64,000 nucleotides of DNA from Anaerovoracaceae bacterium (GTDB lineage Bacteria > Bacillota > Clostridia > Peptostreptococcales > Anaerovoracaceae). A program made the translations under genes and the position numbers. The notes under the pieces are model-generated. The model saw only the letters and a program-made list of their open reading frames with translations. It searched no databases and had not been told where the DNA came from. How positions within the stretch are numbered: position 1 is the first letter of the stretch; the number at the start of each line of letters is the position of its first letter. This document shows, piece after piece, positions 28,283 through 42,265 of this stretch. The stretch lies in assembly GCA_045546135.1 (NCBI GenBank), contig JAZQCD010000010.1, positions 1,766 to 65,765 of the forward strand, given 5' to 3'.

Positions 28283-28305
28283 ACCTGATTGCGATACGCA
28301 TCCAT

Positions 28306-28511: not shown

Positions 28512-29369
28512 ATGAGAAAGAAAAGAAGAGACGGAGTCCGTATAGACGGACTTGACGGATACCACAATATACTTCCGTATATAATGCCCAAAAGAACGGA
28601 AGCAGAAGTCAGCCTTACAGAGACCTTCGATGTTACCGAGCTTCTTGAGTATATGAAGGAAAGAAATGAAAAAGAGGGACTTAACCTTAAGTTCTTCCAT
28701 GCTTTCTGCACATCAGTAGCAAGGACCATTTACCTTCGCCCTGTCATGAATACATTCATTTCCGGCAGGAAGTTTTGGCAAAGGCAGGAGGTTAGTCTTT
28801 CCTTTGTCGTAAAGCAGGCCTTTGCAGATGACGGCGAAGAGACGCTCATGTTCCTCGTCGTAAAACCCGATATGAACCTTGATTCTGTATCAAAGCTGAT
28901 CCTTGGTGATGTTCAAAAGGTAAGGAAAGAGCATACCAACGATCTTGACAAGCTCATGAACTTCGTCGGAAGCCTTCCAAGGTGGTTCCTTGAAATATTC
29001 TTCTGGACACTCAGGAAACTTGAATATCACGGCTGTATGCCAAAGGGCCTTACTGCAGGCGATCCTAACTACTCCACAGCTTTATTATCGAACCTTGGCT
29101 CCATCAAGTCAGGAGCTCCCTATCATCACTTAAGCGAGTATGGCACATGCTCCCTTATGATAACCATAGGAACGGTCCACAAGGAAAACTATATAAAGGA
29201 CGACGGAACTGTAGGTTCAAAGGACATAGTTGAGGCCACCTTTACTCTTGACGAAAGGCTTGCAGACGGTTTCTATTACGCAAAGTCCTTAAGGATCACC
29301 AAGTATCTCCTTGAGCATCCTGAGCATTTGACAGAGACCATGGAGACACCGGTCCCAGTGGAGCTTTAA
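28512..29369 (+). CDS. stand-alone 2-oxoacid dehydrogenase E2 / CAT-like acyltransferase-fold protein (paralog 1)
   Basis: The C-terminal DERLADGFYY aligns with the E2 DHRxxDG motif. About 285 aa from the ATG at 28512 (RBS GAGAGG); the track start at 28494 is a GTG. It is a paralog of 50748-51611. Confidence 0.65.
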   Translation: MRKKRRDGVRIDGLDGYHNILPYIMPKRTEAEVSLTETFDVTELLEYMKERNEKEGLNLKFFHAFCTSVARTIYLRPVMNTFISGRKFWQRQEVSLSFVVKQAFADDGEETLMFLVVKPDMNLDSVSKLILGDVQKVRKEHTNDLDKLMNFVGSLPRWFLEIFFWTLRKLEYHGCMPKGLTAGDPNYSTALLSNLGSIKSGAPYHHLSEYGTCSLMITIGTVHKENYIKDDGTVGSKDIVEATFTLDERLADGFYYAKSLRITKYLLEHPEHLTETMETPVPVEL

Positions 29370-29372
29370 AGA

Positions 29373-31922
29373 ATGAAAAGAATTTCGAAAAAAATTTCAT
29401 TGATGAAACTGATCATCATGGCGGCAATAATTGCCGCCATGTTTCCTTGCAAAGCCTTTGCAGAAAGCACAAGTCTTGATACGGGCATAGAAGGACTTTA
29501 TGCAGAATATGATGGAGGCTCATGGACAAGTTCCGGCAATATGATCACCGGTTCTGCTACGGGGACCGCAGAGGATATATGGGACTATGCAAAGAGCGCT
29601 GAAGGGACATTGGTCTTAAAGAATTCTCTCAATGAAGATGCAGTTTTGTCCTTTTCATATTCAGTTACTTTGGCGCAGGGCGGAAAAGTGACCATAGATG
29701 ATGCAGAAGTTTTGGAGAGCGGCAGCTTTTCAAAAAGGCTCGCTCCAAATGAAACTGTTGAAATAACCATTTTTTCAGGAGATCCGGGAGCAAGGACCTC
29801 TGCTGCTGAACTTAAAGGCATCACCTTTACAAAGAAAGTCCACGCCAACGTGACTTTCATGCCTTCAGAATCTGGCGGCTACTATACAGTAGACGGAGAA
29901 ACTGTCACAGAAAAGCTTGTCATAGGGCGCGATGCAGAAGATGGTTTTGATCTCCAAGCCTTCCCAAGTGAAGGATACAAGCTCCTTGGCTGGTATTCAG
30001 ATGCGATCGGTGGATACTTAGGAGACTCAATAGCATTTACGGCATTTTTTGACAGGGACCAGACTGTCTATCCTGTATTTGCAGATGAAGACCTTCCCAT
30101 ATGGCAAGCAGGTGTATATAGATCTTCAGATCTTAATGATGCTGTCCTTTACGCAGCTGAAAATGATATAGAGACCATAGTCCTTGCATCAAGCGGTACT
30201 ATTCCTGCAGGGACATATACTATTCCTTTTGGGCATACTCTCCTGATCCCTTATGACAATGCGGGCACTGTAAACAGGGAAACTCCTGATATATATAAGG
30301 CTTTGGATGCCTTTGCTCCCTATCCGTTCAGGACCCTCACCATGGAGGGAGGAGCTGTGCTTGATATAAAGGGCGCTCTCAATGTAAACGGCAAGATAAA
30401 CTCTGACAATACAGGCTATACGGGAGTAACATCGGGTCCTTACGGATATATATCTATGGAAGAGGGCAGCTCCATAAACCTTAGCAGCGGCGCTTCTTTA
30501 TACTGCTGGGGATATATAGCTGGAGACGGCAGCATCACTGCGGCAAGAGGGTCTTCTGTATTTGAACCATTCCAGATAGCAGACCTAAGAGGCGGTACTG
30601 CTACATCTGCAATGAACAACAATGCAGCAAGGGTCCTTCCTTTCCAGCAGTACTATATACAAAACATCGAAGTTCTCACTGTATACGAGTATGGTTCAAG
30701 AGGACTTGCTGTAGGCTCAACAACCATAGACGGAGACGTGGCAGTTCCTACTCTTAACTTTGCAGGACCTGAAGACGGAAGCCTGTTTAGACTCTCTGCA
30801 GGTTCTTCCTTTTCAAAGAGGTATGACCCAAAAGAAGACAGAGTATATTACGAGATAGACGGGGATGCGAACTTGTCTCCTGTGTCCATACATGCATATA
30901 TAAATGTATATTCAGATAAATATACCCTTCCTTTAATGGAGAATACGACTGTCATCATAAAGTCAGGAACTGTTACTCTTGATCAGGACCTTTGCCTTCT
31001 TCCCGGCAATGAGACAGTAATTGAAAGAGGAGCAGCCCTAAAAGTATCTTCAGGAAACAAACTGTATATATATGACAGGGATGACTACATGGGCAAAGGC
31101 TTTCTCTTTGAAGGCGCTGACATGATGCCCAGCTTCTATCAGCCGGACAGAAAGCCGTCCGATGTATTTGATGAAAGCAAGATGGTCGATGCCATTCTTG
31201 ATGTCTGCGGCAGGCTCGAGGCAGAAGGCAGTGTCTTTACTACTAAGGGCGGAGCAAACATCACCAGCTCAAACGGTCTTGGAAGAGTGGTCTTCATTTC
31301 TGCTGCTTCGGGTCCTGAACTTACCTATCAGACAGTCCAGACAGGTACAGAGGTCGAGTACCAAGGCATAGAGGCAGTACCTCCCATGCTGAAGAACGGA
31401 GTCTTTGGACAAGAGGATGGGTATACACTCACCACCGGCAGCGAAGGGGGTTCATATTTCAGCTATTGCAAAAAAGAGGACAAATGGCATACAGGAGATC
31501 CATGCCAGGATGCAGCTATAACGGTCATTCCTTATCCGCAGGATGCATTTACGGAGTGGACAGACTATGTGGCCCGCGAGAGGACAGTGAATGTCTTTTA
31601 CGACATTCCGTGCAGAGCAGGCTATCTTAAGGACGGAAGGTATGTAAAGCTTGAGCCAAGGAAAGAGGCAGACGGAAGCTATAGTTTCGATGCTCCTGAA
31701 GGTGTAGATGAACTCATACTTGTGATACTTGGCGATGTGAATCTTGACGGCAGGATATCCAATGCAGATTCGACAAAACTCAAGGCCTCAGTAAAGGGAA
31801 TGGCAGCCTTGGATCTTGTTCAGGAATTCGCTGCTGATGTCAACGGAGATAAAAAGATATCCAATGCAGATTCAACGAAATTAAAGGCTGTCGTAAAGGG
31901 TATGACGACCCTTGGCTGGTAG
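29373..31922 (+). CDS. secreted protein of unknown function with a C-terminal dockerin
   Basis: 849 aa with a signal peptide (..MFPCKAFA-ES), one GYKLLGWYSD Listeria-Bacteroides-type repeat, and a long Gly/Ser/Thr-rich, possibly beta-helical, middle. A dockerin sits at the C-terminus. It starts 3 nt after the previous stop. Confidence 0.8.
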   Translation: MKRISKKISLMKLIIMAAIIAAMFPCKAFAESTSLDTGIEGLYAEYDGGSWTSSGNMITGSATGTAEDIWDYAKSAEGTLVLKNSLNEDAVLSFSYSVTLAQGGKVTIDDAEVLESGSFSKRLAPNETVEITIFSGDPGARTSAAELKGITFTKKVHANVTFMPSESGGYYTVDGETVTEKLVIGRDAEDGFDLQAFPSEGYKLLGWYSDAIGGYLGDSIAFTAFFDRDQTVYPVFADEDLPIWQAGVYRSSDLNDAVLYAAENDIETIVLASSGTIPAGTYTIPFGHTLLIPYDNAGTVNRETPDIYKALDAFAPYPFRTLTMEGGAVLDIKGALNVNGKINSDNTGYTGVTSGPYGYISMEEGSSINLSSGASLYCWGYIAGDGSITAARGSSVFEPFQIADLRGGTATSAMNNNAARVLPFQQYYIQNIEVLTVYEYGSRGLAVGSTTIDGDVAVPTLNFAGPEDGSLFRLSAGSSFSKRYDPKEDRVYYEIDGDANLSPVSIHAYINVYSDKYTLPLMENTTVIIKSGTVTLDQDLCLLPGNETVIERGAALKVSSGNKLYIYDRDDYMGKGFLFEGADMMPSFYQPDRKPSDVFDESKMVDAILDVCGRLEAEGSVFTTKGGANITSSNGLGRVVFISAASGPELTYQTVQTGTEVEYQGIEAVPPMLKNGVFGQEDGYTLTTGSEGGSYFSYCKKEDKWHTGDPCQDAAITVIPYPQDAFTEWTDYVARERTVNVFYDIPCRAGYLKDGRYVKLEPRKEADGSYSFDAPEGVDELILVILGDVNLDGRISNADSTKLKASVKGMAALDLVQEFAADVNGDKKISNADSTKLKAVVKGMTTLGW
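31731..31919 (+). other. dockerin module (two Ca-binding loop + helix segments)
   Basis: GDVNLDGRISNADSTKLKASVKG ... ADVNGDKKISNADSTKLKAVVKG. Both loops fit D-x-N-x-D-x(6)-D. Confidence 0.8.
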
Positions 31923-31954
31923 TAAGAAAATGACATATGATAAAGATATAACGG

Positions 31955-31983
31955 CATCCCCGCATCGGCGGGGATGTTTTTGT
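31955..31983 (+). terminator. intrinsic terminator
   Basis: CATCCCCGC-ATCG-GCGGGGATG followed by TTTTTGT. Confidence 0.85.
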
Positions 31984-32156
31984 GTTATCCGTATCCTAAT
32001 ATTTTTTTATTATACAAACATAAAAATATCAAAAATTATTTGTATCCAAGAACTAAAATTATATTGCATCTGAGTTTTAAGAATAGTAAAATACCAAGGT
32101 ATACATAACTAATATTCTTAATGTTATTCCATTTAAGAAGAGAAAGAGGAAATATT

Positions 32157-35100
32157 ATGAAGGGATTCAAAAAAATCACGAGTTTGCTGCTCGTATTTGC
32201 TCTCCTTCTCACCTCAGGTCTTGTCACAAAGTTCTCCTTTGCTGACGAAGACGAGTCCAAGGGACAGGAAGTCTCCTGGCAGGTGGTAGAGAACGATGCA
32301 GACAGAATAGCAGACAGGCTCAACAGCAATGTGCCTTTCGATGATGTCACCGGAATGGAGACTCTGACAGGTACAGTGCGTGTATCCATCCTTCTGGATC
32401 AGCCCTCCACTCTGGATCAGGGATACGAAGCAGCATCCATAGCTTCCAACAGGAGCGCTATGAACTACAGAGCTTCTCTTGAGAAAGCTCAGGACGAACT
32501 TGCTGCCAAGATCTCAAAGAATATCCTCGGCGGAGAAGAGCTGGATGTTGTCTGGAACCTGACATTGGCAGCAAATATCATTTCTGCCTATGTTCCGGCA
32601 GAGAAGATCCCGGCTATCAAGGCTATGAAGGGCGTTAAGGACGTAGTTGTTGAAAACACCTACGAACCTATGGATGACGTAGAGACATCCGATGAACCTA
32701 ACATGGCAGTTGCCTCCGGAATGACTGGTGCCCAGTACGGCTGGGGAGCAGGCTACACCGGTGCAGGCAGTCTCATCGCCATCGTCGATACAGGACTTGA
32801 TGTTGACCATCAGTCATTCAGTTCTGTAGCATACGATATGGCTATAGCAAGACTCAAAGCCACAACAGGAAAAGAAGTAGACCAGCTCACAGCAGAAGAA
32901 GTTGCATCAGTATGGTCACAGCTCAATGCATCCAAGAGGACGAGAGGAACAGTCGATCAGACATATTTCGGTTCCAAGGTCCCTTACGGATTCAACTATG
33001 TTGACAGAAACTTCAACATCATCCACATCAACGATACCCAGGGCGAGCACGGTTCTCACGTTGCAGGTATCGCTGCAGGAAACAGGTTCATATATGAAGA
33101 ATCTGAAGACGGCAGCTTCACACTGAAGAATGCTATTTCCGCAGTAGGAACACAGGGCAACGCTCCTGATGCTCAGCTCCTCATCATGAAGGTATTCGGA
33201 CGCGGCGGCGGAGCTTCCGATTCCGACTACTTTGCAGCCATCGAGGACGCAATAGTTCTCGGAGCAGATGCAGTCAACCTTTCACTTGGTTCTGCAAGCA
33301 AGGGCTTTGCATACAATGCAACTTATGCAGATCTTATAAACAGACTGACAAACACCAATATCATCTGGGCTAACTCCGCAGGAAACAGCGGAGCATGGGC
33401 AGACGCCACCTTTGCAGGCTATACCTACAGCGACCATGTAAACATGGGCACAGGCGGATCCCCTGCAACCTATTCCAACACTCTGTCAACAGCATCTGTT
33501 GACAATGACGGATCTATCGGTGCATATATGCTTGTGGGCGAGGATATGATCTACTATACAGAGACTTCCGGATACGGAAATGCTCCTATGAAGACCATCC
33601 CCGGCACATATCAGTATGTATATATCGACAGCGCAGGACTTCAGGAAGAGTTCGATGCACTCGGACAGGAAATAATCGGCGGAAAGATCGGTATCGCAAA
33701 CCGTGGAACAACATCCTTCTTCCAGAAGGCAAACGGTGCTATGTCCAACGGAGCTATAGCCGGTATCATCGTCAACAACCAGCCGGGAACCATCAGCATG
33801 AACCTGACAGGTTACGAGTATAGTGCTCCTGTAGTATCCATACTCCAGACAGATGGAGCGATCTTGAAGGCGGCAGCTGAAGAGACAGTAGAATATGATG
33901 ACGGAACACTTTCCTTCACATACTATATAGGAACCATCACAGTTGATGACAAGCTCGGTATAAACAACTACAACAGCGAATACTATACAATGAGCTCCTT
34001 CTCAAGCTGGGGCGTTCCTGAAGATCTGTCCTTAAAGCCTGAGATCACAACTCCCGGCGGAAACATCTATTCCGTAAACGGTTATGCAAATTCAGACAGC
34101 GGAATCACTGGCGGACACGATCAGTATGAGCTCATGTCAGGTACATCCATGGCATCTCCTCAGACAGCAGGTATAGTCGGTATCATGTCCCAGTTCTACA
34201 GAGAGTCAGGACTCAAAGAAAGAGCAGATGCTTATGGCCTTACACAGCGCCACATCCTCCAGAGTCTCCTTATGTCCACAGCAAGACCTCTTTACGACAA
34301 GGATTCCGGTAACTACTACAGCGTAATGAAGCAGGGCGCAGGTCTTGCGGATGTCAACGCTGCCATGAACGCAAACGTATTCGTTCTCATGAATGGAACG
34401 ACTGTCGGCGGTGAAGTCAGAAAAGACATTTCTGCATATGCAGCTGACGGAAAAGTCAAGGCAGAACTTGGTGATGACCCGCACAGATCCGGTTTCTATA
34501 CAGTTGAGTTCACGCTCAACAACCTTACAGACGAAGATCGTTTCTATGATCTTGAAGCTGAATTCTTCACTCAGGATGTATTCGGATACTATACATTTGA
34601 TTCCAACGGAGAGCCTATCGCTGATGAGGAAGGAAACCCGGTAGTATCCACATACCTTGATGAGTGGACAGCACCTCTTAGTGCAAATGTCAGGTGGTTC
34701 CTCGACGGAAGAGAATGCATTCCTGATTTCTTCATCGATCCTAACATGGACGGTGAGTTCAATGAGGAAGATGCAGATGCAATACTCGACTTTGTTCTTA
34801 TGGACGGAACAGAAAACCCTGTAGAGATCAATGAAGATGACGCTGATCTCGACGGAGACGGCGCTGTCACCACATACGATGCATATCTTGCACTCAAGTA
34901 TGCAAATATGGGAACAACAGTAGTTCCAGCAAACGGAACAACAACTGTTAAGGTCGAATTCGAACTTACAGACATTGCAGATTACGATGACCACGGCGCA
35001 TTCGTAGAAGGATATATCTCTGCTACAGAAAAAGATTCCGAAGACGGCGAACTCGGAGTAAGACACTCCATCCCGGTACTCGGATACTACGGCAGCTGGA

Positions 35101-38100
35101 GCGAACCATCCTTCATAGATGTCGGATCCGTACGTGAATATGAATACGGTCTTGAGCAGAGAGCTCCGTATATGGCATATCCTCTCGGAACGGCTGCTGA
35201 AGACATCACCGCATTCTTAGGTACTCACGCAACACTCGGAGTCACCTATGTTCTCGGAGGCAACCCTGTCCTTACAGACAGCCAGTACTTCCCTGAAAGA
35301 AATGCTGTAAACAGCAACACAGCCCTTGCAGGTGCATCCTATACACTTATAAGGAACACCGTAGGACTGAAATATCAGCTCTTCGATGAGAGCGGAAAGC
35401 TCATAAATGAATCAACAGGCGGATCAAACACTTACTCCTCTTACTATCACGTGAACCAGGCTAAGTGGATGAACACCAGCACATCTTCTTCCTATGGCTA
35501 CAGGCCATCTTCTGTAAAGGAAGGAGAAGAGGTAACTCTTGCACTGAGCTTTGCTTCCGAATATTATCGCAACAATGAAACAGGCGAGATAGCATGGGAT
35601 GAGATCCAGCCCACAAAGCAGCTCTCATTCGTTATCGACAACACAGCTCCTACAGTATCTTCCGTATTTGGAAAGAGAATGACAACTGAGGACTCCGATA
35701 CAGTCATACTTACACTCGCTGCAACAGACAACGAGTACATAGCAGGCGTATTCGTCTATGACGAAGCAGGCAACCAGCTCTATGGCGAAGGTTCAAGAAC
35801 AGACGCCAAGAAGGAAGGCGCCCGTGACAGAGGAGACTATGCTATCGTTCTCGACGGAGCAAATGTACCTGATCATCTCGAATTCGAGATCTGGGACTAT
35901 GCAGCCAACGTAACTACAGTCATGGTCAACCTCAACAAGGATGAACTCAGCGATCCTGTATCTGTAGTACTCGACACTGAAGAAGCTATGAGCGTTGTCG
36001 GCAATACTATCAAGATCAACGCAACAGTATATCCTTGGGGAACTGAGGATCAGAGAGTCACATGGACAAGCAGCGATGAAACAGTTGCAACAGTTGAGGA
36101 CGGTCTCGTACTCGGTGTTGGAGCAGGAACTGCAACCATTACAGCTACATCAGTTCTCGATCCTAACGCATCCGCAACATGCGAAGTCAAGTTCATAACC
36201 ATCGACAGAGACTTAAACGGAATCGTTTGGGATGAAAACGGTCAGGTATGGTTCTCAGAATTCAACCTGAACACACTTCCTGAATACACAAGACTTACAG
36301 ATGAAAGCTCAATAGTTCCTCTTACATCAACGGCATACGGTGCAGACGGAACTCTCTACGCTGTGACTTTCGATACAGAAGGATTCCTTTCTGACCTCTA
36401 TACAGTAGATGAAGGGACATTCGAGGCGACATTTGTAGGTTCCAATACTGAGATAGGATATATGGATCTGGCTCCTGCACCGAGCCTTGGAGAGAATATC
36501 CTCATGGGCGTATACGGACCTTATGCAGTCATCGTAGACGCAACAACAGGCGGATATGTCGGTGTATTCGATCTCAGCGCTTATATGACCGGAAGCTACC
36601 TTGTAGGTATCGCATACGAGGAACAGTACTATCATCCGCTCTACGGCAATACAGATTGGTACTTCTTCATTGATGACGCAGGTAATCTCTACAACTGTGG
36701 ATTCCTTCCATACAACGGATCTTACAGCAGATTCGGAGTATCTGCTGTCGGAAACCTCGGATCAACAGCAGATGTTCCTTACTTCCAGTCACTCTACTAT
36801 GACGGAACAGATCTTTACTGGTCCAACTACTCTGAAAGCAAGGGCGTTGTAGATGTCATATTCGTAAACGATCTCTATAACGACGGAGCCATCTTCAAGG
36901 CTGGTTCCTTCGCTCCGGACGTATGGCCTGTAGGAGGACTTTGGAACGAGAACATCAAGTCCATGATCGGCATAGCAGCAGAAGGCGGAGATAAGGCAGC
37001 TGCAGTTATTGACGAAAGTGGCGAACTCCTTGCAAAGGCAGAACCTATCAACTTCAGAAAAGTAAGCGCAGACGGCGGCCTCAATGCAGCAAATGTTCAG
37101 AGTGTTGTTTCCGGAGCAGGCCTCCTCGGAATAGAAACAGAAGTCAATGTTCCTGACAAGACGACCACAGCTACCATCACCATCGATGCAGCAGGCGACG
37201 TCCTCGGTGAAGACGGAGTTACTTATGTAACACACAACGGTCTTTACGAAGTTATCTACGATGCAGAGGTACTTGAAGTCGAAAGCTGCACATCAACTCT
37301 CGATCACTTCCGTGCATACGGAGTTGACGGCAGGGTCAAGGTCGTATTTGCAGACCTTGAAGGTGTAGCAGAAGGCGAAACAGTAGCAACCATCGTATTC
37401 AAGACGATTGAAAATGTTGATACTACAGTATACGTAGACACTATTGAATCCGAAGACAACTTCGAATCTTCTGAAGAAGAATACGAGATCCCGAAAGTAA
37501 AAGGCCATCTCGTTGTAACAGCATCTGATGCAAGCAAGGAATACGGTGAAGAGGATCCTGAACTCGAGTGGAGTGCAGAAGGATTTGTCGGAGATGACAC
37601 CGAAGAACTCCTCGAAGGTCTTGTAACAGTAACAAGAGAAGAGGGCGAAGATGTCGGCACATATGTGATCACTGTCGCAGGTCCTGAAGAGATCGATGAC
37701 TACACCATTGAATATGTAGAAGGTGAGTTTGAGATCACTAAGGCACACCTCGTGGTAACAGCATCCGATGCAAGCAAGGAATACGGCGAAGATGATCCTG
37801 AACTCGAGTGGAGTGCAGAAGGATTTGTCGGAGATGACACCGAAGAACTCCTCGAAGGTCTTGTAACAGTAACAAGAGAAGAAGGCGAAGATGTCGGAAC
37901 ATATGAGATCACAGTTACCGGTCCTGAAGAGATCGACAATTACACCATCGAATATGTAAACGGCACATTCGAGATCGAACAGAGCCTCACAGTCGTCGCT
38001 TACCCGCAGGATTCCTTCGTAGAGGATGAACAGTACCATGTTGAAGGCAATATACTTTGGGTCTCATACCCACAGGCATGCAAGGTTGGATACCTTGTAA

Positions 38101-38390
38101 ACGGAGAGTATGTAGCACTTCCTTACCACAATCTGACTCAGAACAGTTACATCTACCTCGTACCGGCTGATGTAAAGGAAGTCATCATCGTTGTAAAGGG
38201 CGATGTAAACCTTGACGGAAGTCTTTCAAATGCAGATGCTACAAAACTCAAGGCAGCTGTAAAGGGAGCAGCAGAACTTGATGCAGTTCAGGCATTCGCA
38301 GCAGATGTCAACGGTGACGGAAGCCTTTCTAACGCAGATGCTACAAAACTCAAAGCAGTTGTTAAGGGTGCAGCATCTCTTGACTGGTAA
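32157..38390 (+). CDS. giant secreted S8 subtilisin-family peptidase (cell-envelope-protease-like, with PA insert) ending in a dockerin
   Basis: Signal peptide, then an I9-like propeptide. The catalytic triad is in context: IAIVDTGLD, HGSHVAGIAAG, SGTSMASPQTAG. The PA-domain insert reads GKIGIANRGTTSFFQKA. There is a Big_2-like domain, two 80-aa repeats and a C-terminal dockerin. The ATG at 32157 follows the RBS AGAGGA. Confidence 0.9.
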   Translation: MKGFKKITSLLLVFALLLTSGLVTKFSFADEDESKGQEVSWQVVENDADRIADRLNSNVPFDDVTGMETLTGTVRVSILLDQPSTLDQGYEAASIASNRSAMNYRASLEKAQDELAAKISKNILGGEELDVVWNLTLAANIISAYVPAEKIPAIKAMKGVKDVVVENTYEPMDDVETSDEPNMAVASGMTGAQYGWGAGYTGAGSLIAIVDTGLDVDHQSFSSVAYDMAIARLKATTGKEVDQLTAEEVASVWSQLNASKRTRGTVDQTYFGSKVPYGFNYVDRNFNIIHINDTQGEHGSHVAGIAAGNRFIYEESEDGSFTLKNAISAVGTQGNAPDAQLLIMKVFGRGGGASDSDYFAAIEDAIVLGADAVNLSLGSASKGFAYNATYADLINRLTNTNIIWANSAGNSGAWADATFAGYTYSDHVNMGTGGSPATYSNTLSTASVDNDGSIGAYMLVGEDMIYYTETSGYGNAPMKTIPGTYQYVYIDSAGLQEEFDALGQEIIGGKIGIANRGTTSFFQKANGAMSNGAIAGIIVNNQPGTISMNLTGYEYSAPVVSILQTDGAILKAAAEETVEYDDGTLSFTYYIGTITVDDKLGINNYNSEYYTMSSFSSWGVPEDLSLKPEITTPGGNIYSVNGYANSDSGITGGHDQYELMSGTSMASPQTAGIVGIMSQFYRESGLKERADAYGLTQRHILQSLLMSTARPLYDKDSGNYYSVMKQGAGLADVNAAMNANVFVLMNGTTVGGEVRKDISAYAADGKVKAELGDDPHRSGFYTVEFTLNNLTDEDRFYDLEAEFFTQDVFGYYTFDSNGEPIADEEGNPVVSTYLDEWTAPLSANVRWFLDGRECIPDFFIDPNMDGEFNEEDADAILDFVLMDGTENPVEINEDDADLDGDGAVTTYDAYLALKYANMGTTVVPANGTTTVKVEFELTDIADYDDHGAFVEGYISATEKDSEDGELGVRHSIPVLGYYGSWSEPSFIDVGSVREYEYGLEQRAPYMAYPLGTAAEDITAFLGTHATLGVTYVLGGNPVLTDSQYFPERNAVNSNTALAGASYTLIRNTVGLKYQLFDESGKLINESTGGSNTYSSYYHVNQAKWMNTSTSSSYGYRPSSVKEGEEVTLALSFASEYYRNNETGEIAWDEIQPTKQLSFVIDNTAPTVSSVFGKRMTTEDSDTVILTLAATDNEYIAGVFVYDEAGNQLYGEGSRTDAKKEGARDRGDYAIVLDGANVPDHLEFEIWDYAANVTTVMVNLNKDELSDPVSVVLDTEEAMSVVGNTIKINATVYPWGTEDQRVTWTSSDETVATVEDGLVLGVGAGTATITATSVLDPNASATCEVKFITIDRDLNGIVWDENGQVWFSEFNLNTLPEYTRLTDESSIVPLTSTAYGADGTLYAVTFDTEGFLSDLYTVDEGTFEATFVGSNTEIGYMDLAPAPSLGENILMGVYGPYAVIVDATTGGYVGVFDLSAYMTGSYLVGIAYEEQYYHPLYGNTDWYFFIDDAGNLYNCGFLPYNGSYSRFGVSAVGNLGSTADVPYFQSLYYDGTDLYWSNYSESKGVVDVIFVNDLYNDGAIFKAGSFAPDVWPVGGLWNENIKSMIGIAAEGGDKAAAVIDESGELLAKAEPINFRKVSADGGLNAANVQSVVSGAGLLGIETEVNVPDKTTTATITIDAAGDVLGEDGVTYVTHNGLYEVIYDAEVLEVESCTSTLDHFRAYGVDGRVKVVFADLEGVAEGETVATIVFKTIENVDTTVYVDTIESEDNFESSEEEYEIPKVKGHLVVTASDASKEYGEEDPELEWSAEGFVGDDTEELLEGLVTVTREEGEDVGTYVITVAGPEEIDDYTIEYVEGEFEITKAHLVVTASDASKEYGEDDPELEWSAEGFVGDDTEELLEGLVTVTREEGEDVGTYEITVTGPEEIDNYTIEYVNGTFEIEQSLTVVAYPQDSFVEDEQYHVEGNILWVSYPQACKVGYLVNGEYVALPYHNLTQNSYIYLVPADVKEVIIVVKGDVNLDGSLSNADATKLKAAVKGAAELDAVQAFAADVNGDGSLSNADATKLKAVVKGAASLDW
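34737..34912 (+). other. internal dockerin-like double EF-hand module inside the subtilase
   Basis: DPNMDGEFNEEDADAILDFVL ... DLDGDGAVTTYDAYLALKYA. Both segments fit the dockerin loop-helix pattern. Confidence 0.6.
37500..37979 (+). repeat. tandem direct duplication, 2 x 240 bp (2 x 80 aa, YG-type Ig-like/MBG-like repeat)
   Basis: Copies at 37500-37739 and 37740-37979. By hand count there are about 30 mismatches in 240, with an 89-nt perfectly identical core (37554-37642 = 37794-37882). Confidence 0.9.
38199..38387 (+). other. dockerin module of the subtilase
   Basis: GDVNLDGSLSNADATKLKAAVKG ... ADVNGDGSLSNADATKLKAVVKG. Confidence 0.8.
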
Positions 38391-38577: not shown

Positions 38578-40236
38578 ATGAAAAAAAGTAAATTTATTTT
38601 ATGCTTTATCTTAGCTGTTGCAATGTTAGTAAGCGTCGTCCCCTTTGGGGACATGGTCTTTGCTGCGGACAAGGATTACAAATTTAAATACAGCGTATCC
38701 TCGAATGCGAACAACGGCACTGTAGGTAATGTTACAGGTACAGTATATGATGACTATTCTGCAGACATCGTCTTTACAGGCAGCGCAGTCAACAGAAGCA
38801 ATGCTAAGGTAGAGATCTGGATGAAGAATGTTGCAAGTCTTGGCGTATCAGATCCTAAGTACTATGTGAGAAATGTAGAAACGGGTCTTACGGGCGAAGA
38901 CACTTCCATGGATAACGTCAAAGCGAGATTCAATGGATTTAACGAGGAAACCACATTCAATGTGACCGTAAACGGTGACAAAAAGATGTCCTATAAGGTC
39001 AAGAACGAGATCGGCAGCGACATGAAGGTCGTTAAGGTCAACGCAACTCCGAGCAGCTTCGAGGAAGCTCATGATGTCTGGTATGCCATTACGGCTGAAG
39101 AAAACATCAAGACGACACATGACGGAGAAAGAGACAGCTTCTTCCTTATCAAAAACGGTTCATGGCTTCAGGTAGGAGACCAAAAGGTCGAATTCGAAGG
39201 AAGCGATGATCTTAAGATCGACAATGTAGGACAGCTCAAATACATCTATGATTCCATCAAGGCGGCTCTTGCTCTCAATACAGTTGAAGCAGGAGAAGAA
39301 GCAGAAGGCATAGTCCTTTACTTTGAACCCCACACTGTCTTCTCAGTAGGAGCAAGCAGCGTAGAACTGTTAAAGGATGCCAGAGTCACAGTAAAGATGG
39401 AGACCGAAGATCTCATCGATTCCATAAAGGCTCTTCAGGAAAGCGAAGATTCTGAAGCTCTGATCAAGGATATGCTTGCGTTCATCGAGAATGTGATCAC
39501 TGAAGTAGGCGGAAAGTCAAACGATATCGACATAGAGTTCGGCCACAAGTATCCTGCACAGGGTGAAGATGAAAACAACCCCACCTGGGAATGGGCAGAG
39601 GATTACTCCTGGGCAAAGGCAACCTTCACCTGCACAAACAACGATACACACGAAAAAGAGACCTTTGATGCAACTGTTACATCAAAAACAGAAGGCGGAA
39701 AGACCATCTATACTGCAACCGTTACAGTAAACGGAGAAGAGTATACGGATACAAAGGAAGTGCAGAACGACATAATCGTTGAACCGCATGCAGAAAATGA
39801 ACGCTTTTTCGAAAATGAGGACGATAAGGATGTAACTAACGATGCGTTTGATTCATATACGATCAACGGACATGTAGTAACGGTCAAGTGTAAGCTTCCA
39901 TGCAGGATCGGATATCTCGAGGAAGGCGCAAAAGTATATACGCCTGTAAAGGCAGTTTTGCTCGAAGGCACTACCGATCAGTATACATATACGGTTCCTG
40001 ACCATATCAACAAGGTAATACTCGTATTGGTCGGAGATGCAAATCTTACAGGAAACCATTCTAACGCTGATTCAACTGCCACCAAGGCACATATCAAGGG
40101 CATCAATTATCTTGATGTTATCGAGCAGTTTGCAGCGGATGCCAACTTCAGCAATTCAATTTCAAATGCAGACTCTACATCCATAAAGGCGCATATCAAA
40201 GGCATCAGATACTTTAAGTGGGAAGTGCAAGAATAA
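38578..40236 (+). CDS. secreted protein of unknown function with a divergent C-terminal dockerin-like module
   Basis: The ATG at 38578 follows AGGAGG. The signal peptide is MKKSKFILCFILAVAMLVSVVPFGDMVFA. The C-terminus reads GDANLTGNHSNADSTATKAHIKG ... ADANFSNSISNADSTSIKAHIKG. Confidence 0.75.
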   Translation: MKKSKFILCFILAVAMLVSVVPFGDMVFAADKDYKFKYSVSSNANNGTVGNVTGTVYDDYSADIVFTGSAVNRSNAKVEIWMKNVASLGVSDPKYYVRNVETGLTGEDTSMDNVKARFNGFNEETTFNVTVNGDKKMSYKVKNEIGSDMKVVKVNATPSSFEEAHDVWYAITAEENIKTTHDGERDSFFLIKNGSWLQVGDQKVEFEGSDDLKIDNVGQLKYIYDSIKAALALNTVEAGEEAEGIVLYFEPHTVFSVGASSVELLKDARVTVKMETEDLIDSIKALQESEDSEALIKDMLAFIENVITEVGGKSNDIDIEFGHKYPAQGEDENNPTWEWAEDYSWAKATFTCTNNDTHEKETFDATVTSKTEGGKTIYTATVTVNGEEYTDTKEVQNDIIVEPHAENERFFENEDDKDVTNDAFDSYTINGHVVTVKCKLPCRIGYLEEGAKVYTPVKAVLLEGTTDQYTYTVPDHINKVILVLVGDANLTGNHSNADSTATKAHIKGINYLDVIEQFAADANFSNSISNADSTSIKAHIKGIRYFKWEVQE

Positions 40237-40411
40237 TTCATATTTATGTAAAAAAAATGTAGAGTTTTGAACGTTATTGGATTATAATTAATGAAAGAGA
40301 ATGGGTGGGTAGTCTTACTGTTCAAAACGATTTGGGAAGTAGGACTGTTCAGTCGATTCTTTAGATATTTTAGGTTTTTATTTTTCAAACTATAAAACGG
40401 AGGTCATGAGA

Positions 40412-42193
40412 ATGAAAAAGAAACTGATTGCAGTACTCCTCTGCATGGTGCTTGTCATAGCGGCTGTGCCGAGCGTATTTGCAGCAAACGACAGGGAGGT
40501 CACATTTACAGTAACACAGAGTCCTGTAAGCCTCACACAGAGTGCCAGCGAACAGACAGTCACTCTTTCAGTTGATGCTAACAAGACCGTAACTGTAGAC
40601 GGCATTCAGGCAATGCTCCCATATCCGAATGCAGACGGAGAAACAGGACCCTGGACAATAAGTGCTATTGGAAACAAGACACTTACATTCAGAGGTGCCC
40701 ACTATCAGGTAAAGAAGGCTGACGATCCTACAACAGGTCAGATCACATGGGATTCTGAAGATCCTGAAACAGGTGATATGCCTTCTCTCGAAACAACTAA
40801 TCTTTTCACTGTCACCTACAAGATTCCTGCAGGTACACCTGCCGGTGAGTATGTTGTTGAGATCAATGATTTTGAGCTCACAGACAACGGCGGAGACATT
40901 TGGGAATCAACAAGTCTCACATATACAGTTGTTATCGAAGAAGCTCCTACACCGCTTAACGGCGTAACAGTTGCTCCGGAAACAGCAACACTCTTCCCCG
41001 GAGATACTCAGGAACTCGTAGCTACATATGATCCTGAAAAGCCATCTATCCAAACAGCAACATGGACATCCAGCGACACAACAGTTGCAACAGTTGACGA
41101 AGACGGAGTTGTAAAAGCAGTTGCAGGCGGAACAGCAACTATTACTCACACAGTAACAGACGTTCTTGGCAACACAAAGACAGCTACAGCTACCATTACT
41201 GTTTACAAGACAGTTGACAAGCCGACAGCAGCAACAGGACTTAAGTATACAGGTTCTGAACAGACAGGCGTTGCAGCAGCAACAGGATACACAGTTGAAG
41301 GCGGCAAGGGAACAAATGCAGGCAACTACACAGCAACTGCAACACTTGCAGAAGGCTATGCATGGTCTGACAATACAACAGATCCTGTTCCGGTAGAATG
41401 GTCCATCGCTCCTAAGACAGTAGCAGCTCCGGCTCCGACTGAAACTGAGTTCGAATACAACGGCAAGGCTCAGACAGTTGCAGAAGGAACAAGCGAATAC
41501 ACAGTTGAGGGCGGAACACAGACAAACGCAGGCGAGTACACAGCAACAGCAACTCTCAAGGATGCAACAAACTATACTTGGGAAGACGGCAAAACAGCAC
41601 CTGTAACCATTGAATGGGTCATCACTCCAAAGGAAGTTGAACTTCCGGAGGCTAAGACAGGTCTTGTATATAACGGATCTGAGCAGACCGGTGTAGAAGG
41701 AACTGACGAATATACAGTCGAGGGCGGCAAGGAAACAAATGCCGGCACATATACAGCAACAGTAGCTCTCAAGGATAAGGCTAACTATGTTTGGGCGAAT
41801 AACGGACAGAGCGCAGATCAGACAGTAGATTGGGAGATCGAGCAGGCTGAACTTACAGCTGACAAACTCGAACTCGCAGTTGGCGGATCCAAGCAGCTTC
41901 CGGAAGAGGAAGGCGTATCCTATGAGCTCGTAGAGCCTGCAGAAGGTGAAGAGCCTGTTGTAGAACTCAGCGAAGACGGAACAGTCAAGGGTCTTAAGGA
42001 AGGTGAAGCAACCATCGTTGTAGTATCCAATGGACAAGGAAACTACAAGCGTGGTGATGCTGAGATCACAGTCACAGTGACCAAGCCTCCTGTAACCGGA
42101 GACAAGACAATGCTCTACATCGTTTCTGCAATAGCAGCACTCGTAGTTCTTGGTGCATATCTCATCGTATCCAAGAAGAAAGAGCAGAGATAA
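40412..42193 (+). CDS. cell-wall-anchored scaffoldin-like protein: cohesin-like domain + Big_2 + three repeats + PPVTG sorting signal
   Basis: Signal peptide (MKKKLIAVLLCMVLVIAAVPSVFA), then a beta-sandwich of about 155 aa with a cohesin-like pattern. A Big_2 domain follows (ATWTSSDTTVATVDEDGVVKAVAGGTATIT), then three repeats of about 65-72 aa. The C-terminus is PPVTG + hydrophobic helix + KKKEQR. An alternative ATG exists at 40406. Confidence 0.75.
   Translation: MKKKLIAVLLCMVLVIAAVPSVFAANDREVTFTVTQSPVSLTQSASEQTVTLSVDANKTVTVDGIQAMLPYPNADGETGPWTISAIGNKTLTFRGAHYQVKKADDPTTGQITWDSEDPETGDMPSLETTNLFTVTYKIPAGTPAGEYVVEINDFELTDNGGDIWESTSLTYTVVIEEAPTPLNGVTVAPETATLFPGDTQELVATYDPEKPSIQTATWTSSDTTVATVDEDGVVKAVAGGTATITHTVTDVLGNTKTATATITVYKTVDKPTAATGLKYTGSEQTGVAAATGYTVEGGKGTNAGNYTATATLAEGYAWSDNTTDPVPVEWSIAPKTVAAPAPTETEFEYNGKAQTVAEGTSEYTVEGGTQTNAGEYTATATLKDATNYTWEDGKTAPVTIEWVITPKEVELPEAKTGLVYNGSEQTGVEGTDEYTVEGGKETNAGTYTATVALKDKANYVWANNGQSADQTVDWEIEQAELTADKLELAVGGSKQLPEEEGVSYELVEPAEGEEPVVELSEDGTVKGLKEGEATIVVVSNGQGNYKRGDAEITVTVTKPPVTGDKTMLYIVSAIAALVVLGAYLIVSKKKEQR
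40490..40945 (+). other. cohesin-like domain (candidate dockerin receptor)
   Basis: EVTFTVTQSPVSL..TVTLSVDANKTVTVDGIQAMLPYP...GQITWDSE...LFTVTYKIPAGTPAGEYVVEINDFELTD. This matches the general cohesin strand pattern by eye and has not been HMM-verified. Confidence 0.5.
41219..41848 (+). repeat. three tandem protein repeats of about 65-72 aa (Y-x-G-x-x-Q ... TNAG-x-YTAT type)
   Basis: GLKYTGSEQTGV..GKGTNAGNYTATATL / EFEYNGKAQTV..GTQTNAGEYTATATL / GLVYNGSEQTGV..GKETNAGTYTATVAL. Confidence 0.75.
42086..42193 (+). other. sortase-type tripartite cell-wall sorting signal
   Basis: PPVTG (42086-42100), then DKTM, a hydrophobic stretch (LYIVSAIAALVVLGAYLIV) and a basic tail (SKKKEQR). Confidence 0.6.
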
Positions 42194-42230
42194 TTAAGAA
42201 GTAATCGATATTAATTATCATGACCATACG

Positions 42231-42265
42231 GGGGTCGGAGTTAAATGCTCCGGCCCCTGTTTTGT
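42231..42265 (+). terminator. intrinsic terminator
   Basis: GGGGTCGGAG-TTAAATG-CTCCGGCCCC followed by TGTTTTGTGTT. Confidence 0.8.

Follow-up and report, generated by a model that had tools for sequence, protein, structure and literature searches.

A four-gene Clostridia locus with the makings of a cohesin-dockerin surface-display system built around a large subtilase

The locus at positions 28512-42265 of the window analysed here (64,000 nucleotides from an Anaerovoracaceae bacterium) raises the question of what purpose dockerin-bearing proteins would serve beside a putative wall-anchored receptor and in the company of no enzyme of cellulose breakdown. The reading favoured here, to which a probability of about 0.7 is given, is that genes 2-5 form a small system for surface display, built in the style of a cellulosome but with proteolytic or adhesive instead of carbohydrate-active cargo. 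Sequence and model evidence support a putative wall-anchored single-cohesin receptor with three dockerin ligands, of which a subtilase would be the main cargo. No CAZymes were found in the cluster, in agreement with the original prediction of a proteolytic or adhesive assembly distinct from a cellulosome. Its likely role is extracellular protein degradation and/or adhesion in an uncultured gut or rumen-type Clostridia bacterium.

Table 1. Features of the locus, in window coordinates.
Feature	Position	Strand	Description
Terminator-like hairpin	28306-28327		Before the cluster
Gene 1	28512..29369	+	285 aa; stand-alone 2-oxoacid_dh-acyltransferase-like; cytoplasmic, without signal peptide
Gene 2	29373..31922	+	849-aa secreted protein; C-terminal X-module plus dockerin
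Gene 2 X-module plus dockerin dyad	31518..31919	+	aa 716-849; Ca loops DVNLDGRISNAD and DVNGDKKISNAD
Terminator-like hairpin	31953-31978		After gene 2
Gene 3	32157..38390	+	2077-aa secreted subtilase, cell-envelope-proteinase/C5a-peptidase type; C-terminal X-module plus dockerin
S8 catalytic domain	32760..34313	+	aa 202-719
PA domain	33672-33863	+	aa 506-569; inserted in S8 domain
Internal dockerin-like pair of EF-hand Ca loops	34737..34916	+	aa 861-920; DPNMDGEFNEED and DLDGDGAVTTYD
Repeat-like beta-rich region	36195..37076	+	aa 1347-1640, about 290 aa; no family
Probable divergent cohesin module	37077..37526	+	aa 1641-1790
Two MBG_2 (YGX-type) repeats	37503..37970	+	PF18676, E 6.7e-42, 2 stretches
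Subtilase X-module plus dockerin dyad	37980..38387	+	aa 1942-2077
Terminator-like hairpin	38431-38458		After gene 3
Promoter-like site	38508-38537		Upstream of gene 4
Gene 4	38578..40236	+	552-aa secreted protein; X-module plus putative degenerate dockerin (dyad nt 39766-40221)
Gene 5	40412..42193	+	593-aa anchoring scaffoldin-like protein
Divergent cohesin domain, gene 5 (by profile and model)	40484..40951	+	aa 25-180, 156 aa
Cell-wall sorting signal, gene 5	42086..42190	+	PPVTG, hydrophobic helix, KKKEQR
Terminator-like hairpin	42228..42260	+	Strong; closes the cluster

All five co-directional genes originally described are present as ORFs at the predicted positions (Table 1), and ribosome-binding sites favour the start codons at 32157, 38578 (preceded by AGGAGG) and 40412. 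The cluster is nevertheless a unit of four genes (29373-42193) and not of five. Gene 1 matches PF00198 in Pfam (E 2e-10), has a paralogue of 42% identity at 50748-51611 in the same window, and is probably an unrelated acyltransferase-like gene outside the display system. Its stop codon lies only 3 nt upstream of the gene 2 start and in L009, a close relative, a homologue adjoins the gene-2 orthologue; none occupies the corresponding position in L005, L006 or L008. Pfam finds no GH, CBM or sortase family in the cluster, as anticipated, nor among the scanned ORFs of at least 120 aa in the whole 64-kb window, and the lack of a sortase gene there counts against the favoured reading.

The products of genes 2, 3 and 4 begin with a signal peptide, and all three share at the C-terminus a conserved dyad of X-module plus dockerin. 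Of the three dockerins proposed, those of gene 2 (25.7 bits) and gene 3 (39.8 bits) pass the Pfam Dockerin_1 gathering score of 22.9 bits, whereas that of gene 4 falls short of it (16.4 bits, E 0.011), and its degenerate Ca loops, DANLTGNHSNAD and DANFSNSISNAD, weigh against the favoured reading. Homology of the gene 4 module to those of genes 2 and 3 extends over an alignment of 136 columns that takes in X-module and dockerin, and the profile of the gene 4 family matches the PDB dockerins 8x39 (E 5.5e-4) and 2ccl_B (E 2.8e-3), so that the module can be regarded as a putative degenerate dockerin, recognisable at the profile level only. The two segments of the C-terminal dockerin of the subtilase, DVNLDGSLSNADATKLKAAVKG and DVNGDGSLSNADATKLKAVVKG, are nearly identical, and the helix residues of the gene 2 and gene 3 dockerins hardly differ. 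The dockerin half of the dyad matches solved dockerins in PDB (E 1.6e-9), the best being the double dockerin of a C. thermocellum S8 protease (8x39), and a PDB profile search with the X module gave no sequence match to solved X modules.

Gene 5 encodes a signal peptide, one cohesin, a Big_2 domain, three MBG-like repeats, a second Big_2-like region and a sorting signal, which bears out the predicted succession of Ig-like repeats, PPVTG, hydrophobic stretch and KKK; orthologues share 93% (P0079), 75% (P0012), 48% (P0002) and 40% (P0082) identity. The proposal that its beta-sandwich of about 155 aa is a cohesin holds at the level of the family profile and of AF2/Foldseek but not by Pfam threshold, as the domain alone reaches 13.9 bits against a gathering score of 24.1 for Cohesin, a deficit that speaks against the favoured reading. 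An exhaustive HMMER search assembled a family of 78 representatives, and a 48-member profile matches the R. flavefaciens cohesins 5m2o, 5aoz, 5n5p and 5m2s in PDB (E 9e-7 to 1e-5), every PDB match with E <=0.02 being a cohesin. Pfam Cohesin matches 21 of the 48 members at E 0.1 or better; the short NPCBM_assoc/NEW3 model matches more of them (29 of 48) via the motif VPANTPAGxY, which is a further point against. The AF2 model of the domain (pLDDT 94.2) retrieves mostly cohesins as best Foldseek matches (E 4.5e-5 to 3e-4), with C. perfringens cohesins among the top ones; the moderate TM-scores (0.5-0.65; rmsd 4.5-5.8 A) count on the opposite side, and non-cohesin beta-sandwiches (PsaA, YwEA, pilins) are listed with similar E-values. 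Judged by profile and model, the N-terminal domain of gene 5 is a divergent cohesin. Architectures in the family are scaffoldin-like: members carry a sortase-type tail, a membrane helix or a C-terminal dockerin, and some have the domain in tandem; tails of xPxTG, transmembrane segment and basic residues recur with PPVTG, APATG, TPATG, TPPTG, NPQTG and SPGTG, and the L002 anchor has an equivalent tail with PTPTG, so that orthologues of gene 5 keep this feature. The PPVTG of gene 5 fits the Clostridioides difficile sortase B motif (S/P)PxTG.

For the 2077-aa protein, Pfam confirmed the predicted Peptidase_S8 (E 5.5e-35), PA and Big_2 domains, together with two MBG_2 repeats and Dockerin_1, and PDB searches retrieved C5a peptidase, SpyCEP and cell-envelope-proteinase chains (E 3e-35 to 1e-25). 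The catalytic motifs AIVDTGLD, HGSHVAG, NSAGNSG and SGTSMASP are intact, and the protein would be an active protease, presumably acting on extracellular proteins. Its best NCBIfam match is the SGO_0316 LPXTG serine peptidase family, but at 164.6 bits, far under the cut-off of 1400, it does not belong to that subfamily, and no LPXTG signal is found in it. The subtilase had been cast as cargo and would be the main one; it is not cargo only, as its chain also includes a probable cohesin and, internally, a dockerin-like module. Scanned alone, the latter scores 23.2 bits against the Dockerin_1 gathering score of 22.9, and Ca loops recur near this position (aa 868-906) in 6/6 other subtilase homologues covering the region, the L003 homologue being left out as it is cut upstream. 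The L002 and L003 homologues closely preserve the beta-rich stretch at aa 1347-1640, which has no Pfam match, and patterns drawn from this stretch served to find L004-L008. In the module that follows the stretch, Cohesin is the sole Pfam family matched (18.1 bits, E 0.0032, below the gathering score); orthologous modules match it in five of seven cases (best E 1.8e-5), the best PDB match of the module profile is the cohesin 4ums (E 0.009), and alignment to the gene-5 cohesin family by hhalign yields E 3.7e-4 at 36% probability. A single-sequence AF2 model of the module is poor (pLDDT 60) and has no significant fold match, and the module is kept in all eight subtilase homologues examined, that of the window included. 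With a probable cohesin of its own the subtilase may serve as an adaptor, and together with the internal dockerin-like module this suggests that the assembly may be hierarchical.

The other two ligands were said to be of unknown fold, and so they have stayed. The body of gene 2 is beta-rich with a weak InlB B-repeat-like match, has otherwise no recognisable family and finds no match in PDB or NCBIfam, a three-sequence profile included; its orthologues share 48% (L008) and 92% (L009) identity. The body of gene 4 has no match in Pfam, NCBIfam or PDB, and its L002 orthologue shares 33% identity.

The cluster is syntenic in other uncultured Clostridia. The order subtilase-dockerin, unknown-dockerin, cohesin anchor recurs in another MAG at 33-56% protein identity; both L002 and L008 show one or more dockerin proteins, subtilase-dockerin, gene-4-like-dockerin and cohesin anchor (56%, 33% and 40% identity, the L002 subtilase orthologue being at 56%), in L003 the subtilase adjoins the cohesin anchor, and L009 has the same upstream order. 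Three independent loci show the anchor gene in synteny with the protease. In L007 the 4.6 kb downstream contain no cohesin gene, which counts against the favoured reading and indicates that partners need not be neighbours. Ten dockerin-protein neighbours of the subtilase in L004-L008 are transglutaminase-like, combine DUF2436 with Cleaved_Adhesin (gingipain-adhesin-like) or belong to no known type, and no CAZymes were detected among them. Dockerin identity is 0.53 within loci and 0.36 between loci, a difference reached by 0/2000 label permutations, whereas for the X modules next to them the locus makes no difference (0.40 vs 0.41). The dockerins thus evolve in concert within each locus, as a shared, genome-specific binding partner would produce, and the lack of a corresponding effect in the X modules argues for a shared protein partner; gene conversion among neighbours could also homogenise them. 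Modules, synteny and concerted dockerins together uphold the predicted receptor-plus-ligands arrangement, but in view of L007 not its description as self-contained.

In the favoured reading, gene 5 would be exported and a sortase encoded elsewhere in the genome would probably join PPVTG to peptidoglycan; failing this, its C-terminal helix could keep the protein in the membrane. A single divergent cohesin would thereby be held atop a stalk made up of Ig-like (Big_2) repeats and MBG-like ones. The 849-aa protein, the subtilase and the 552-aa protein would be secreted, each with its C-terminal X-module plus Ca-binding dockerin, and would attach to the gene 5 cohesin non-covalently and presumably in a Ca-dependent manner, the dockerin taking the place of the LPXTG anchor used by related subtilases (C5a peptidase, lactocepin). 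The probable cohesin of the subtilase may in turn recruit another dockerin protein or a second subtilase, so that one anchor would bear a complex of two tiers.

Dockerin-like modules (three or four) outnumber cohesins (one or two) in the cluster, which counts against this reading and would be settled by a variant wiring in which only the X-dockerin of the subtilase plugs into gene 5, and the subtilase itself is the scaffold whose internal cohesin-like module holds the products of genes 2 and/or 4 by their X-dockerins, or another subtilase to give chains. Such an arrangement is tentative and rather unlikely. Cohesin and dockerin in one protein are the mark of classical adaptor scaffoldins (ScaA, ScaB, ScaH; PMC5301203), and the internal module is conserved throughout the homologues, with Pfam matches in most of them and a cohesin as best PDB match. 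The evidence for it is, however, sub-threshold throughout, its model is poor, and it spans only about 110-150 aa with unclear N-terminal strands; moreover, the near-identical helix residues of the gene 2 and gene 3 dockerins would lead one to expect one shared specificity, not a split one.

It is likewise doubtful, though conceivable, that the cluster forms part of a larger cohesin-dockerin network spread over the genome, possibly a cellulosome or amylosome with CAZymes, in which gene 5 mainly anchors scaffoldins or enzymes from elsewhere, the cluster dockerins may bind other scaffoldins, and the absence of CAZymes is a window effect. The data cover 64 kb of the genome, the R. flavefaciens anchor ScaE binds cellulosomal (ScaB XDoc) and peptidase dockerins alike (PMC5301203), adaptor-like members with C-terminal dockerins or tandem cohesins occur in the gene 5 family, and L007 has dockerin genes with no cohesin gene beside them. 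Against this stand the want of CAZymes and CBMs both in the scanned window ORFs and among the ten neighbours in L004-L008, and the recurrent synteny of anchor and protease. That gene 5 is an ordinary sortase-anchored adhesin, with an N-terminal sandwich binding a non-dockerin plant, host or microbial surface and with the modules of genes 2-4 as Ca-binding stabilising or carbohydrate-binding tails without a partner in the cluster, appears improbable. Its sub-threshold Cohesin score, the motif shared with NEW3/NPCBM_assoc Ig-like domains, Big_2 and MBG-like repeats typical of adhesins, and PsaA, YwEA and pilins in the Foldseek list would all suit an adhesin; they are outweighed by the exclusively cohesin PDB profile matches, the lead of cohesins in the Foldseek ranking, the repeated proximity of the anchor gene to genes for dockerin-bearing proteins, and the shared partner favoured by concerted dockerins beside non-concerted X modules.

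The biology of such assemblies had been called largely uncharacterised, which overstates the case, as R. flavefaciens ScaE (PMC5301203, PMC3573020) and a C. thermocellum S8 protease (PMC12484212) are precedents. The sortase-anchored, single-cohesin ScaE binds XDoc and group-4 peptidase dockerins (PMC5301203, PMC3573020), its ligands including ScaB, CttA, a cysteine peptidase and a peptidase-Doc, and strain FD-1 has a head-to-tail transglutaminase-like-Doc operon in which the sequence preceding the dockerin is conserved (PMC5301203, PMC2930009, PMC3573020). In both systems the anchor combines a signal peptide, one cohesin and a sorting signal for sortase, the ligands bear an X module followed by a dockerin, or symmetrical dockerins, with peptidases and transglutaminase-like proteins among them, and R. 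flavefaciens cohesins are the best sequence matches of the gene 5 family. Unlike ScaE, gene 5 clusters with its presumed ligands, with no ScaA/ScaB/CttA-type genes or CBMs nearby, has a long Big_2/MBG stalk and PPVTG instead of LPXTG, and is accompanied by an X module that resembles no solved one in sequence and by a CEP-type subtilase of 2077 aa in place of a papain-like cysteine peptidase. The tandem double dockerin of the C. thermocellum S8 protease (dDoc_0689, PDB 8x39/8x3a) binds the cell-bound ScaD, read as surface anchoring (review PMC12484212). There, as predicted here, a subtilisin-family protease sits on a cell-bound scaffoldin, with two dockerin modules that are the closest in PDB to the cluster's dockerin profile, but the two form a tandem at one end and C. 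thermocellum is a classical cellulosome producer, whereas here one module is internal and the other follows an X module, a cohesin-like module is added, and the catalytic part is of the C5a-peptidase/CEP branch with a PA insert.

Cohesin-dockerin pairs outside cellulose degradation, as here, include those of the survey of Peer et al. 2009, the Clostridium perfringens toxin and glycosidase complexes, the Ruminococcus bromii amylosome, the Cellulosilyticum lentocellum ClcC/ClcD pair and Cloacimonadota MAGs with S8- and C25-dockerin proteins. Some non-cellulosomal or minimal systems have the genes for cohesin and dockerin side by side (PMC13487519), and elsewhere S8 or gingipain-like peptidases bear dockerins (PMC8542988). 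The display principle is therefore already known; its protease-centred version, a conserved operon of a sortase-anchored mono-cohesin protein and a CEP-type subtilase with cohesin-like and dockerin modules, is not described in the literature searched.

With the cell-envelope proteinases (ScpA/ScpB, SpyCEP, lactocepin PrtP) the subtilase shares a large multidomain S8 build, a PA insert, downstream Fn3/Ig-like domains and, by prediction, display on a Gram-positive surface. C5a peptidase, SpyCEP and lactocepin are attached covalently via an LPXTG signal of their own, and LPXTG attachment of the Lactococcus CEP is likewise covalent (PMC7783315). The subtilase of the cluster differs in having no sorting signal and ending in an X-dockerin, which suggests that its anchoring is delegated to a separate cohesin protein.

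The organization of the cluster is best explained by a model, to which we assign a probability of about 0.7, in which an anchored cohesin protein encoded by gene 5 would bind three secreted X-dockerin proteins (genes 2, 3 and 4, each ending in an X-module followed by a dockerin) and display a large protease. The gene 5 product would be attached to the wall or membrane and present one cohesin on a stalk, the X-dockerin proteins would bind this cohesin in a calcium-dependent manner, and the protease (gene 3) would be displayed with no covalent anchor of its own. The predicted cohesin within the subtilase may additionally recruit the gene 2 product, the gene 4 product or another subtilase molecule. 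This reading supports, with corrections, the original prediction of cohesin-dockerin surface display of a subtilase and two proteins of no recognized family without CAZymes.

Coordinates of genes and features in the window, and of dockerin (Doc) proteins in the related metagenomic loci L005 to L008
Feature	Coordinates	Description or position
Gene 1	28512-29369	
Gene 2	29373-31922	849 aa
Gene 3	32157-38390	subtilase, 2077 aa
Gene 4	38578-40236	552 aa
Gene 5	40412-42193	anchor, 593 aa
Internal dockerin-like EF-hand calcium-loop pair of gene 3	34737-34916 (residues 861-920)	between S8 catalytic domain and Fn3-like region
Cohesin-like module of gene 3	37077-37526 (residues 1641-1790)	followed by two MBG repeats and the X-dockerin
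Strong terminator-like hairpin	28306-28327	between cluster and upstream purine-nucleoside-phosphorylase gene
Strong terminator-like hairpin	42228-42260	closes cluster
Transglut_core-Doc or DUF2436 + Cleaved_Adhesin-Doc proteins	L005 1043-3406; L006 560-2815, 3018-5414	
Transglut_core-Doc or DUF2436 + Cleaved_Adhesin-Doc proteins	L007 3-1421, 7514-9379; L008 519-2573	

Cohesins are flattened beta-sandwiches (jelly rolls) of about 140-150 aa, with nine strands in the solved examples. The predicted cohesin of gene 5 falls below the Pfam threshold when taken alone, as residues 25-180 reach 13.9 bits (E 0.064) against a gathering score of 24.1 bits for Cohesin (PF00963), but its family profile and predicted fold both match cohesins. 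Residues 25-180 alone gave nothing significant against the PDB, and a word-indexed search with the 156-aa domain alone returned no relatives. An exhaustive HMMER search yielded a family with 78 representatives, of which 15 reach E <=1e-10, and in nearly all members the domain lies directly behind the signal peptide, with two copies in some. Used as a profile, a 48-sequence alignment of this family matches the R. flavefaciens cohesins 5m2o, 5aoz, 5n5p and 5m2s in the PDB (E 8.6e-7 to 1.2e-5) and the Acetivibrio cellulolyticus cohesin 4ums (E 0.019), with no non-cohesin at E 0.02 or better. With the same alignment as input, AF2 models the gene 5 domain as an all-beta fold (pLDDT 94.2, eight DSSP strand elements), for which cohesins make up 12 of the 17 top Foldseek chains in the PDB (E 4.5e-5 to 3e-4, TM 0.46-0.65). 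These include the non-cellulosomal Archaeoglobus cohesin 2xdh, CohA2 of C. acetobutylicum, cohesins of C. perfringens, type II cohesins of C. thermocellum, and ScaB and ScaC of R. flavefaciens. From profile and predicted fold we conclude that the N-terminal domain of gene 5 is a divergent cohesin. NPCBM_assoc matches are commoner in the family, and this identity was rejected because they span only about 25 residues around a VPANTPAGxY motif.

The gene 5 domain is the only match of its cohesin family in the window, and a scan of species-representative genomes gave a single distant match (27% identity over 152 residues) in a yak-rumen MAG; related sequences come from Firmicutes MAGs, and all ten family members checked are metagenomic proteins. 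The subfamily of 78 representative clusters is largely invisible to the curated Pfam threshold, which most tested members miss. PF00963 is matched singly by 21 of the 48 aligned members (best E 2.6e-6) and 27 fall short even of E 0.1, so that cohesins are probably undercounted in gut and rumen metagenomes.

Downstream of the cohesin, gene 5 continues with a Big_2 domain, three MBG-like repeats, each some 70 aa long, and another Big_2-like region, and it ends with the expected PPVTG, hydrophobic stretch and lysine tail (PPVTG-DKTMLYIVSAIAALVVLGAYLIVS-KKKEQR). The protein thus has the layout of a ScaE-type monovalent anchor, comprising a signal peptide, a single cohesin and a C-terminal sorting signal, the last being PPVTG and not LPXTG. 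PPVTG conforms to (S/P)PxTG, the motif that class-B-like sortases of clostridia recognize. Across the cohesin family the C-termini are scaffoldin-like and consist of xPxTG with a helix and basic tail, a plain membrane helix, or dockerins. No Sortase family match was found in the Pfam-scanned ORFs of at least 120 aa in the 64-kb window.

Type I dockerins are built from two segments in tandem, each about 22 aa long and made up of a 12-residue EF-hand-like calcium loop and the helix behind it. For the three C-terminal dockerins anticipated in the cluster, those of gene 2 (25.7 bits) and gene 3 (39.8 bits) exceed the Dockerin_1 (PF00404) gathering score of 22.9 bits, whereas that of gene 4 lies below it (16.4 bits, E 0.011) and is recognized only at the profile level. 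The calcium loops of genes 2 and 3 conform to D-x-N-x-D-G-x5-D, and the two loop-helix segments of gene 3, DVNLDGSLSNADATKLKAAVKG and DVNGDGSLSNADATKLKAVVKG, are near-duplicates, with those of gene 2 nearly identical. In studied dockerins such internal symmetry accompanies a dual binding mode (PMC5301203, for group-4 dockerins). The gene 4 dockerin is degenerate (DANLTGNHSNAD and DANFSNSISNAD), with T or S at position 5 of its loops and N at position 6 of the second segment. Its module is homologous to those of genes 2 and 3, with which it aligns over 136 columns, and its family profile matches solved dockerins in the PDB at E 5.5e-4. A conserved module of some 70 aa, marked by an invariant C-x-x-G-Y-L and absent from the original prediction, lies ahead of each dockerin, and the unit is therefore a dyad of X-module and dockerin. 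The dyads span residues 716-849 of gene 2, 1942-2077 of gene 3 and 397-552 of gene 4. Solved dockerins, more than 20 in all, are matched by the C-terminal half of the dyad profile; the top match (E 1.6e-9) is 8x39, the double dockerin from an S8 protease of C. thermocellum. The X half has no match in the PDB.

The giant subtilase of gene 3 was identified correctly. Its homologues in the PDB are C5a peptidase, SpyCEP and cell-envelope proteinases (CEPs) of lactococcal type (E 3e-35 to 1e-25), the motifs holding its Asp-His-Ser triad and oxyanion Asn are intact and lie at residues 208, 298, 406 and 661, and its PA insert exceeds the gathering score at 30.4 bits. Together with an Fn3-like region downstream, where fn3_5 is sub-threshold at 21.2 bits against 27.6, these are the features of the CEP/C5a-peptidase S8 group; the NF040553 model scores 164.6 bits against a cut-off of 1400. 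Gene 3 differs from C5a peptidase, SpyCEP and the CEPs in its C-terminus, which carries an X-dockerin ending in GAASLDW in place of a sorting signal, with no sorting motif and no membrane helix found there. Upstream of the cohesin-like module, about 290 aa (36195-37076) without a Pfam family match are strongly conserved in orthologues and contain recurring G-x-L-Y and Y-x-D motifs, a pattern that suggests a beta-propeller-like repeat.

Two further modules of the subtilase had been overlooked. The internal EF-hand pair, when residues 861-920 are scanned alone, scores 23.2 bits with Dockerin_1, just at the threshold, and recurs in every other subtilase homologue covering that region; it could be a structural calcium site or a second dockerin. 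The second module, residues 1641-1790, is a probable cohesin. PF00963 is its sole family match (18.1 bits, below the 24.1-bit gathering score), five of seven orthologous modules match the same family (best E 1.8e-5), and the top PDB match of the module profile is cohesin 4ums (E 0.009). The link to the gene 5 family by hhalign is weak (E 3.7e-4, probability 36%), a word-indexed search with the module found no homologues, and a single-sequence AF2 model is poor (pLDDT 60) with no significant Foldseek match. With a cohesin-like module and an X-dockerin, one chain would carry both halves of a cohesin-dockerin pair. An extension of the display model, which we consider rather unlikely, is a CAZyme-free proteolytic analogue of the cellulosome in which the CEP-type subtilase is both cargo and scaffold, joining cohesin, X-dockerin and internal dockerin-like module in one chain. 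Such a protein could bind further copies of itself, or bring in adhesin-like partners, on one sortase-anchored cohesin stalk. If this were true, uncultured gut and rumen Clostridia would own a modular, genome-specific and co-evolving machine for extracellular protein capture and degradation that is independent of fibre degradation.

The remaining cargo of the display model is less readily classified, as sequence and profile searches of Pfam, NCBIfam and the PDB gave no match for the bodies of genes 2 and 4. A mixed profile of proteins at the gene 2 position in other loci matched PrtH, the gingipain cleaved-adhesin domain and a transglutaminase-like protein; a gingipain-like identity for gene 2 was rejected because these matches belong to non-orthologous proteins of those loci. 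The absence of glycoside hydrolases, CBMs and sortases noted from the sequence is borne out by the Pfam matches of genes 2-5 and window ORFs. Scans revealed no GH, PL, CE or CBM family among genes 2-5, the remaining Pfam-scanned window ORFs or those dockerin proteins of related loci that were covered. For the DNA covered here, as distinct from the whole genome, there are thus neither the dockerin-borne CAZymes nor the CBM-containing scaffoldin that define a cellulosome or amylosome.

The predicted five-gene cluster does consist of five co-directional ORFs filling the interval, but gene 1 encodes an unrelated cytoplasmic protein resembling 2-oxoacid dehydrogenase acyltransferases and is treated as a neighbor, not a component of the display system. 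Its stop codon lies 3 nt ahead of the gene 2 start, it holds the same position in one close relative, and it is missing there in more distant loci. A paralogue (50748-51611, 42% identical) is found 21 kb downstream, followed by a GtrA-like membrane protein gene at 51590-52012; both acyltransferase-like proteins are stand-alone, of about 285 aa, and contain only the C-terminal part of the catalytic domain.

Related loci retain much of this arrangement. A MAG contig (L002, GCA_964444315.1) has the same order of gene-2-like dockerin protein, subtilase-dockerin, gene-4-like dockerin protein and cohesin anchor, with identities of 56% over 1811 aligned positions for the subtilase, 33% for the gene-4-like protein and 40% for the anchor, which ends in PTPTG, a helix and KRKENE. 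Another locus, L008, repeats this order with additional dockerin genes, and in L003 the subtilase adjoins the cohesin anchor with no gene-4 homologue between them. The L003 subtilase frame (1-1143) ends within the X-module, ahead of any dockerin; it may represent a pseudogene or a real variant, or result from a frameshift or an assembly error. In all five loci of one metagenome project, L008 included, the subtilase is flanked by dockerin proteins, which are transglutaminase-like, DUF2436 with Cleaved_Adhesin (gingipain-type), or of no recognized family; no CAZymes were found among those scanned. These neighbors share a protease/adhesin theme. L007 has the subtilase and dockerin proteins with no cohesin-family gene in the 4.6 kb downstream (9400-14008), and adjacency of the anchor is therefore common but not universal.

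Within a locus, dockerin segments are 53% identical as compared with 36% between loci, a difference reached in none of 2000 label permutations, whereas the adjacent X-modules show no locus effect (40% within vs 41% between). Between loci, the dockerins of orthologous subtilases share 42% identity, less than do dockerins on non-orthologous proteins of one locus. The helix positions that differ between loci read SNADxTKLKA here. Dockerin evolution is concerted and genome-specific, a pattern expected from a common cognate partner, although local gene conversion could also cause it. Conserved gene order and this concerted evolution lend indirect support to the predicted calcium-dependent, high-affinity binding of dockerins by the gene 5 cohesin.

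To our knowledge, cohesin-dockerin assembly is understood almost wholly through polysaccharide degradation, and the many dockerins of rumen Clostridia on peptidases, transglutaminase-like and unknown proteins have no assigned biology. The closest known system to the cluster is ScaE of R. flavefaciens, a sortase-anchored single-cohesin scaffoldin that binds the X-dockerin dyads of ScaB, CttA and a cysteine peptidase as well as group-4 dockerins, including a peptidase-dockerin (PMC5301203, PMC3573020). R. flavefaciens FD-1 also has a head-to-tail operon of transglutaminase-like dockerin genes (PMC2930009). The double dockerin of the C. thermocellum S8 protease binds cell-bound ScaD (PMC12484212), S8- and C25-dockerin proteins have been inferred in Cloacimonadota MAGs (PMC8542988), and a minimal adjacent cohesin/dockerin pair has been characterized in Cellulosilyticum lentocellum (PMC13487519). 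Given the ScaE, C. thermocellum, Cloacimonadota and C. lentocellum precedents, the principle is already established. What is new here is a conserved protease-centered operon with its own anchor, an apparent replacement of the LPXTG anchor of a CEP-type subtilase by an X-dockerin, a cohesin-like module within the subtilase itself, and a cohesin subfamily and X-module mostly missed by standard models. The literature searched contained no paper linking CEP/C5a-peptidase-type subtilases with cohesins or dockerins.

The cluster combines a single anchor cohesin, a probable internal cohesin and a closely related trio of X-dockerins, and could be used as a small, conserved system for testing. What non-CAZyme dockerin proteins do has long been an open question, and here it becomes directly testable with few constructs, even if the cluster holds little surprise for specialists. 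Testable questions include whether large CEPs can be anchored non-covalently via a separate scaffoldin instead of their own LPXTG and whether a protease can also act as an adaptor scaffoldin. The divergent pair might find use in synthetic surface display as an orthogonal cohesin/X-dockerin pair.

The originally assigned start codons at 32157, 38578 and 40412 are right, as the ribosome-binding sites AGAGGA, AGGAGG and GGAGG lie 7-9 nt upstream. Terminator-like hairpins are in excess at 28000-42800 (27 observed vs 10.4 +/- 3.1 in shuffles). They are clear after genes 2, 3 and 5, those 3′ of genes 2 and 3 being weaker, and none is clear after gene 4. Excess and placement together suggest transcripts that are terminated or attenuated separately rather than one plain operon. 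Chromosomal housekeeping genes flank the cluster, with a nucleoside ABC transporter, two PNP-family phosphorylases and thymidine kinase upstream and Hsp20, a flavin reductase and an MFS transporter downstream. Base composition is flat over the region and therefore gives no sign of recent insertion. No Rfam families or tRNAs were found in the 64-kb window.

Directly upstream, a nucleoside-salvage block (16561-28282) comprises cytidine deaminase, DeoC aldolase, a phosphopentomutase-like metalloenzyme, a four-gene Bmp-type ABC transporter, two PNP/UDP phosphorylases and thymidine kinase, and is broken at 19035-20441 by an opposite-strand gene of the MatE efflux family. The ORFs at 62294-63664 (456 aa), 6152-6886 (244 aa) and 54974-55567 (197 aa) have no Pfam family in the scan at E 1e-4, and that at 57307-57951 (214 aa) has none at E <=1e-3. 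A three-gene unit at 10353-14028, separate from and unrelated to the cluster and without dockerins, encodes a MoxR-type AAA ATPase, a 292-aa ORF product without family match and a 618-aa transglutaminase-like protein.
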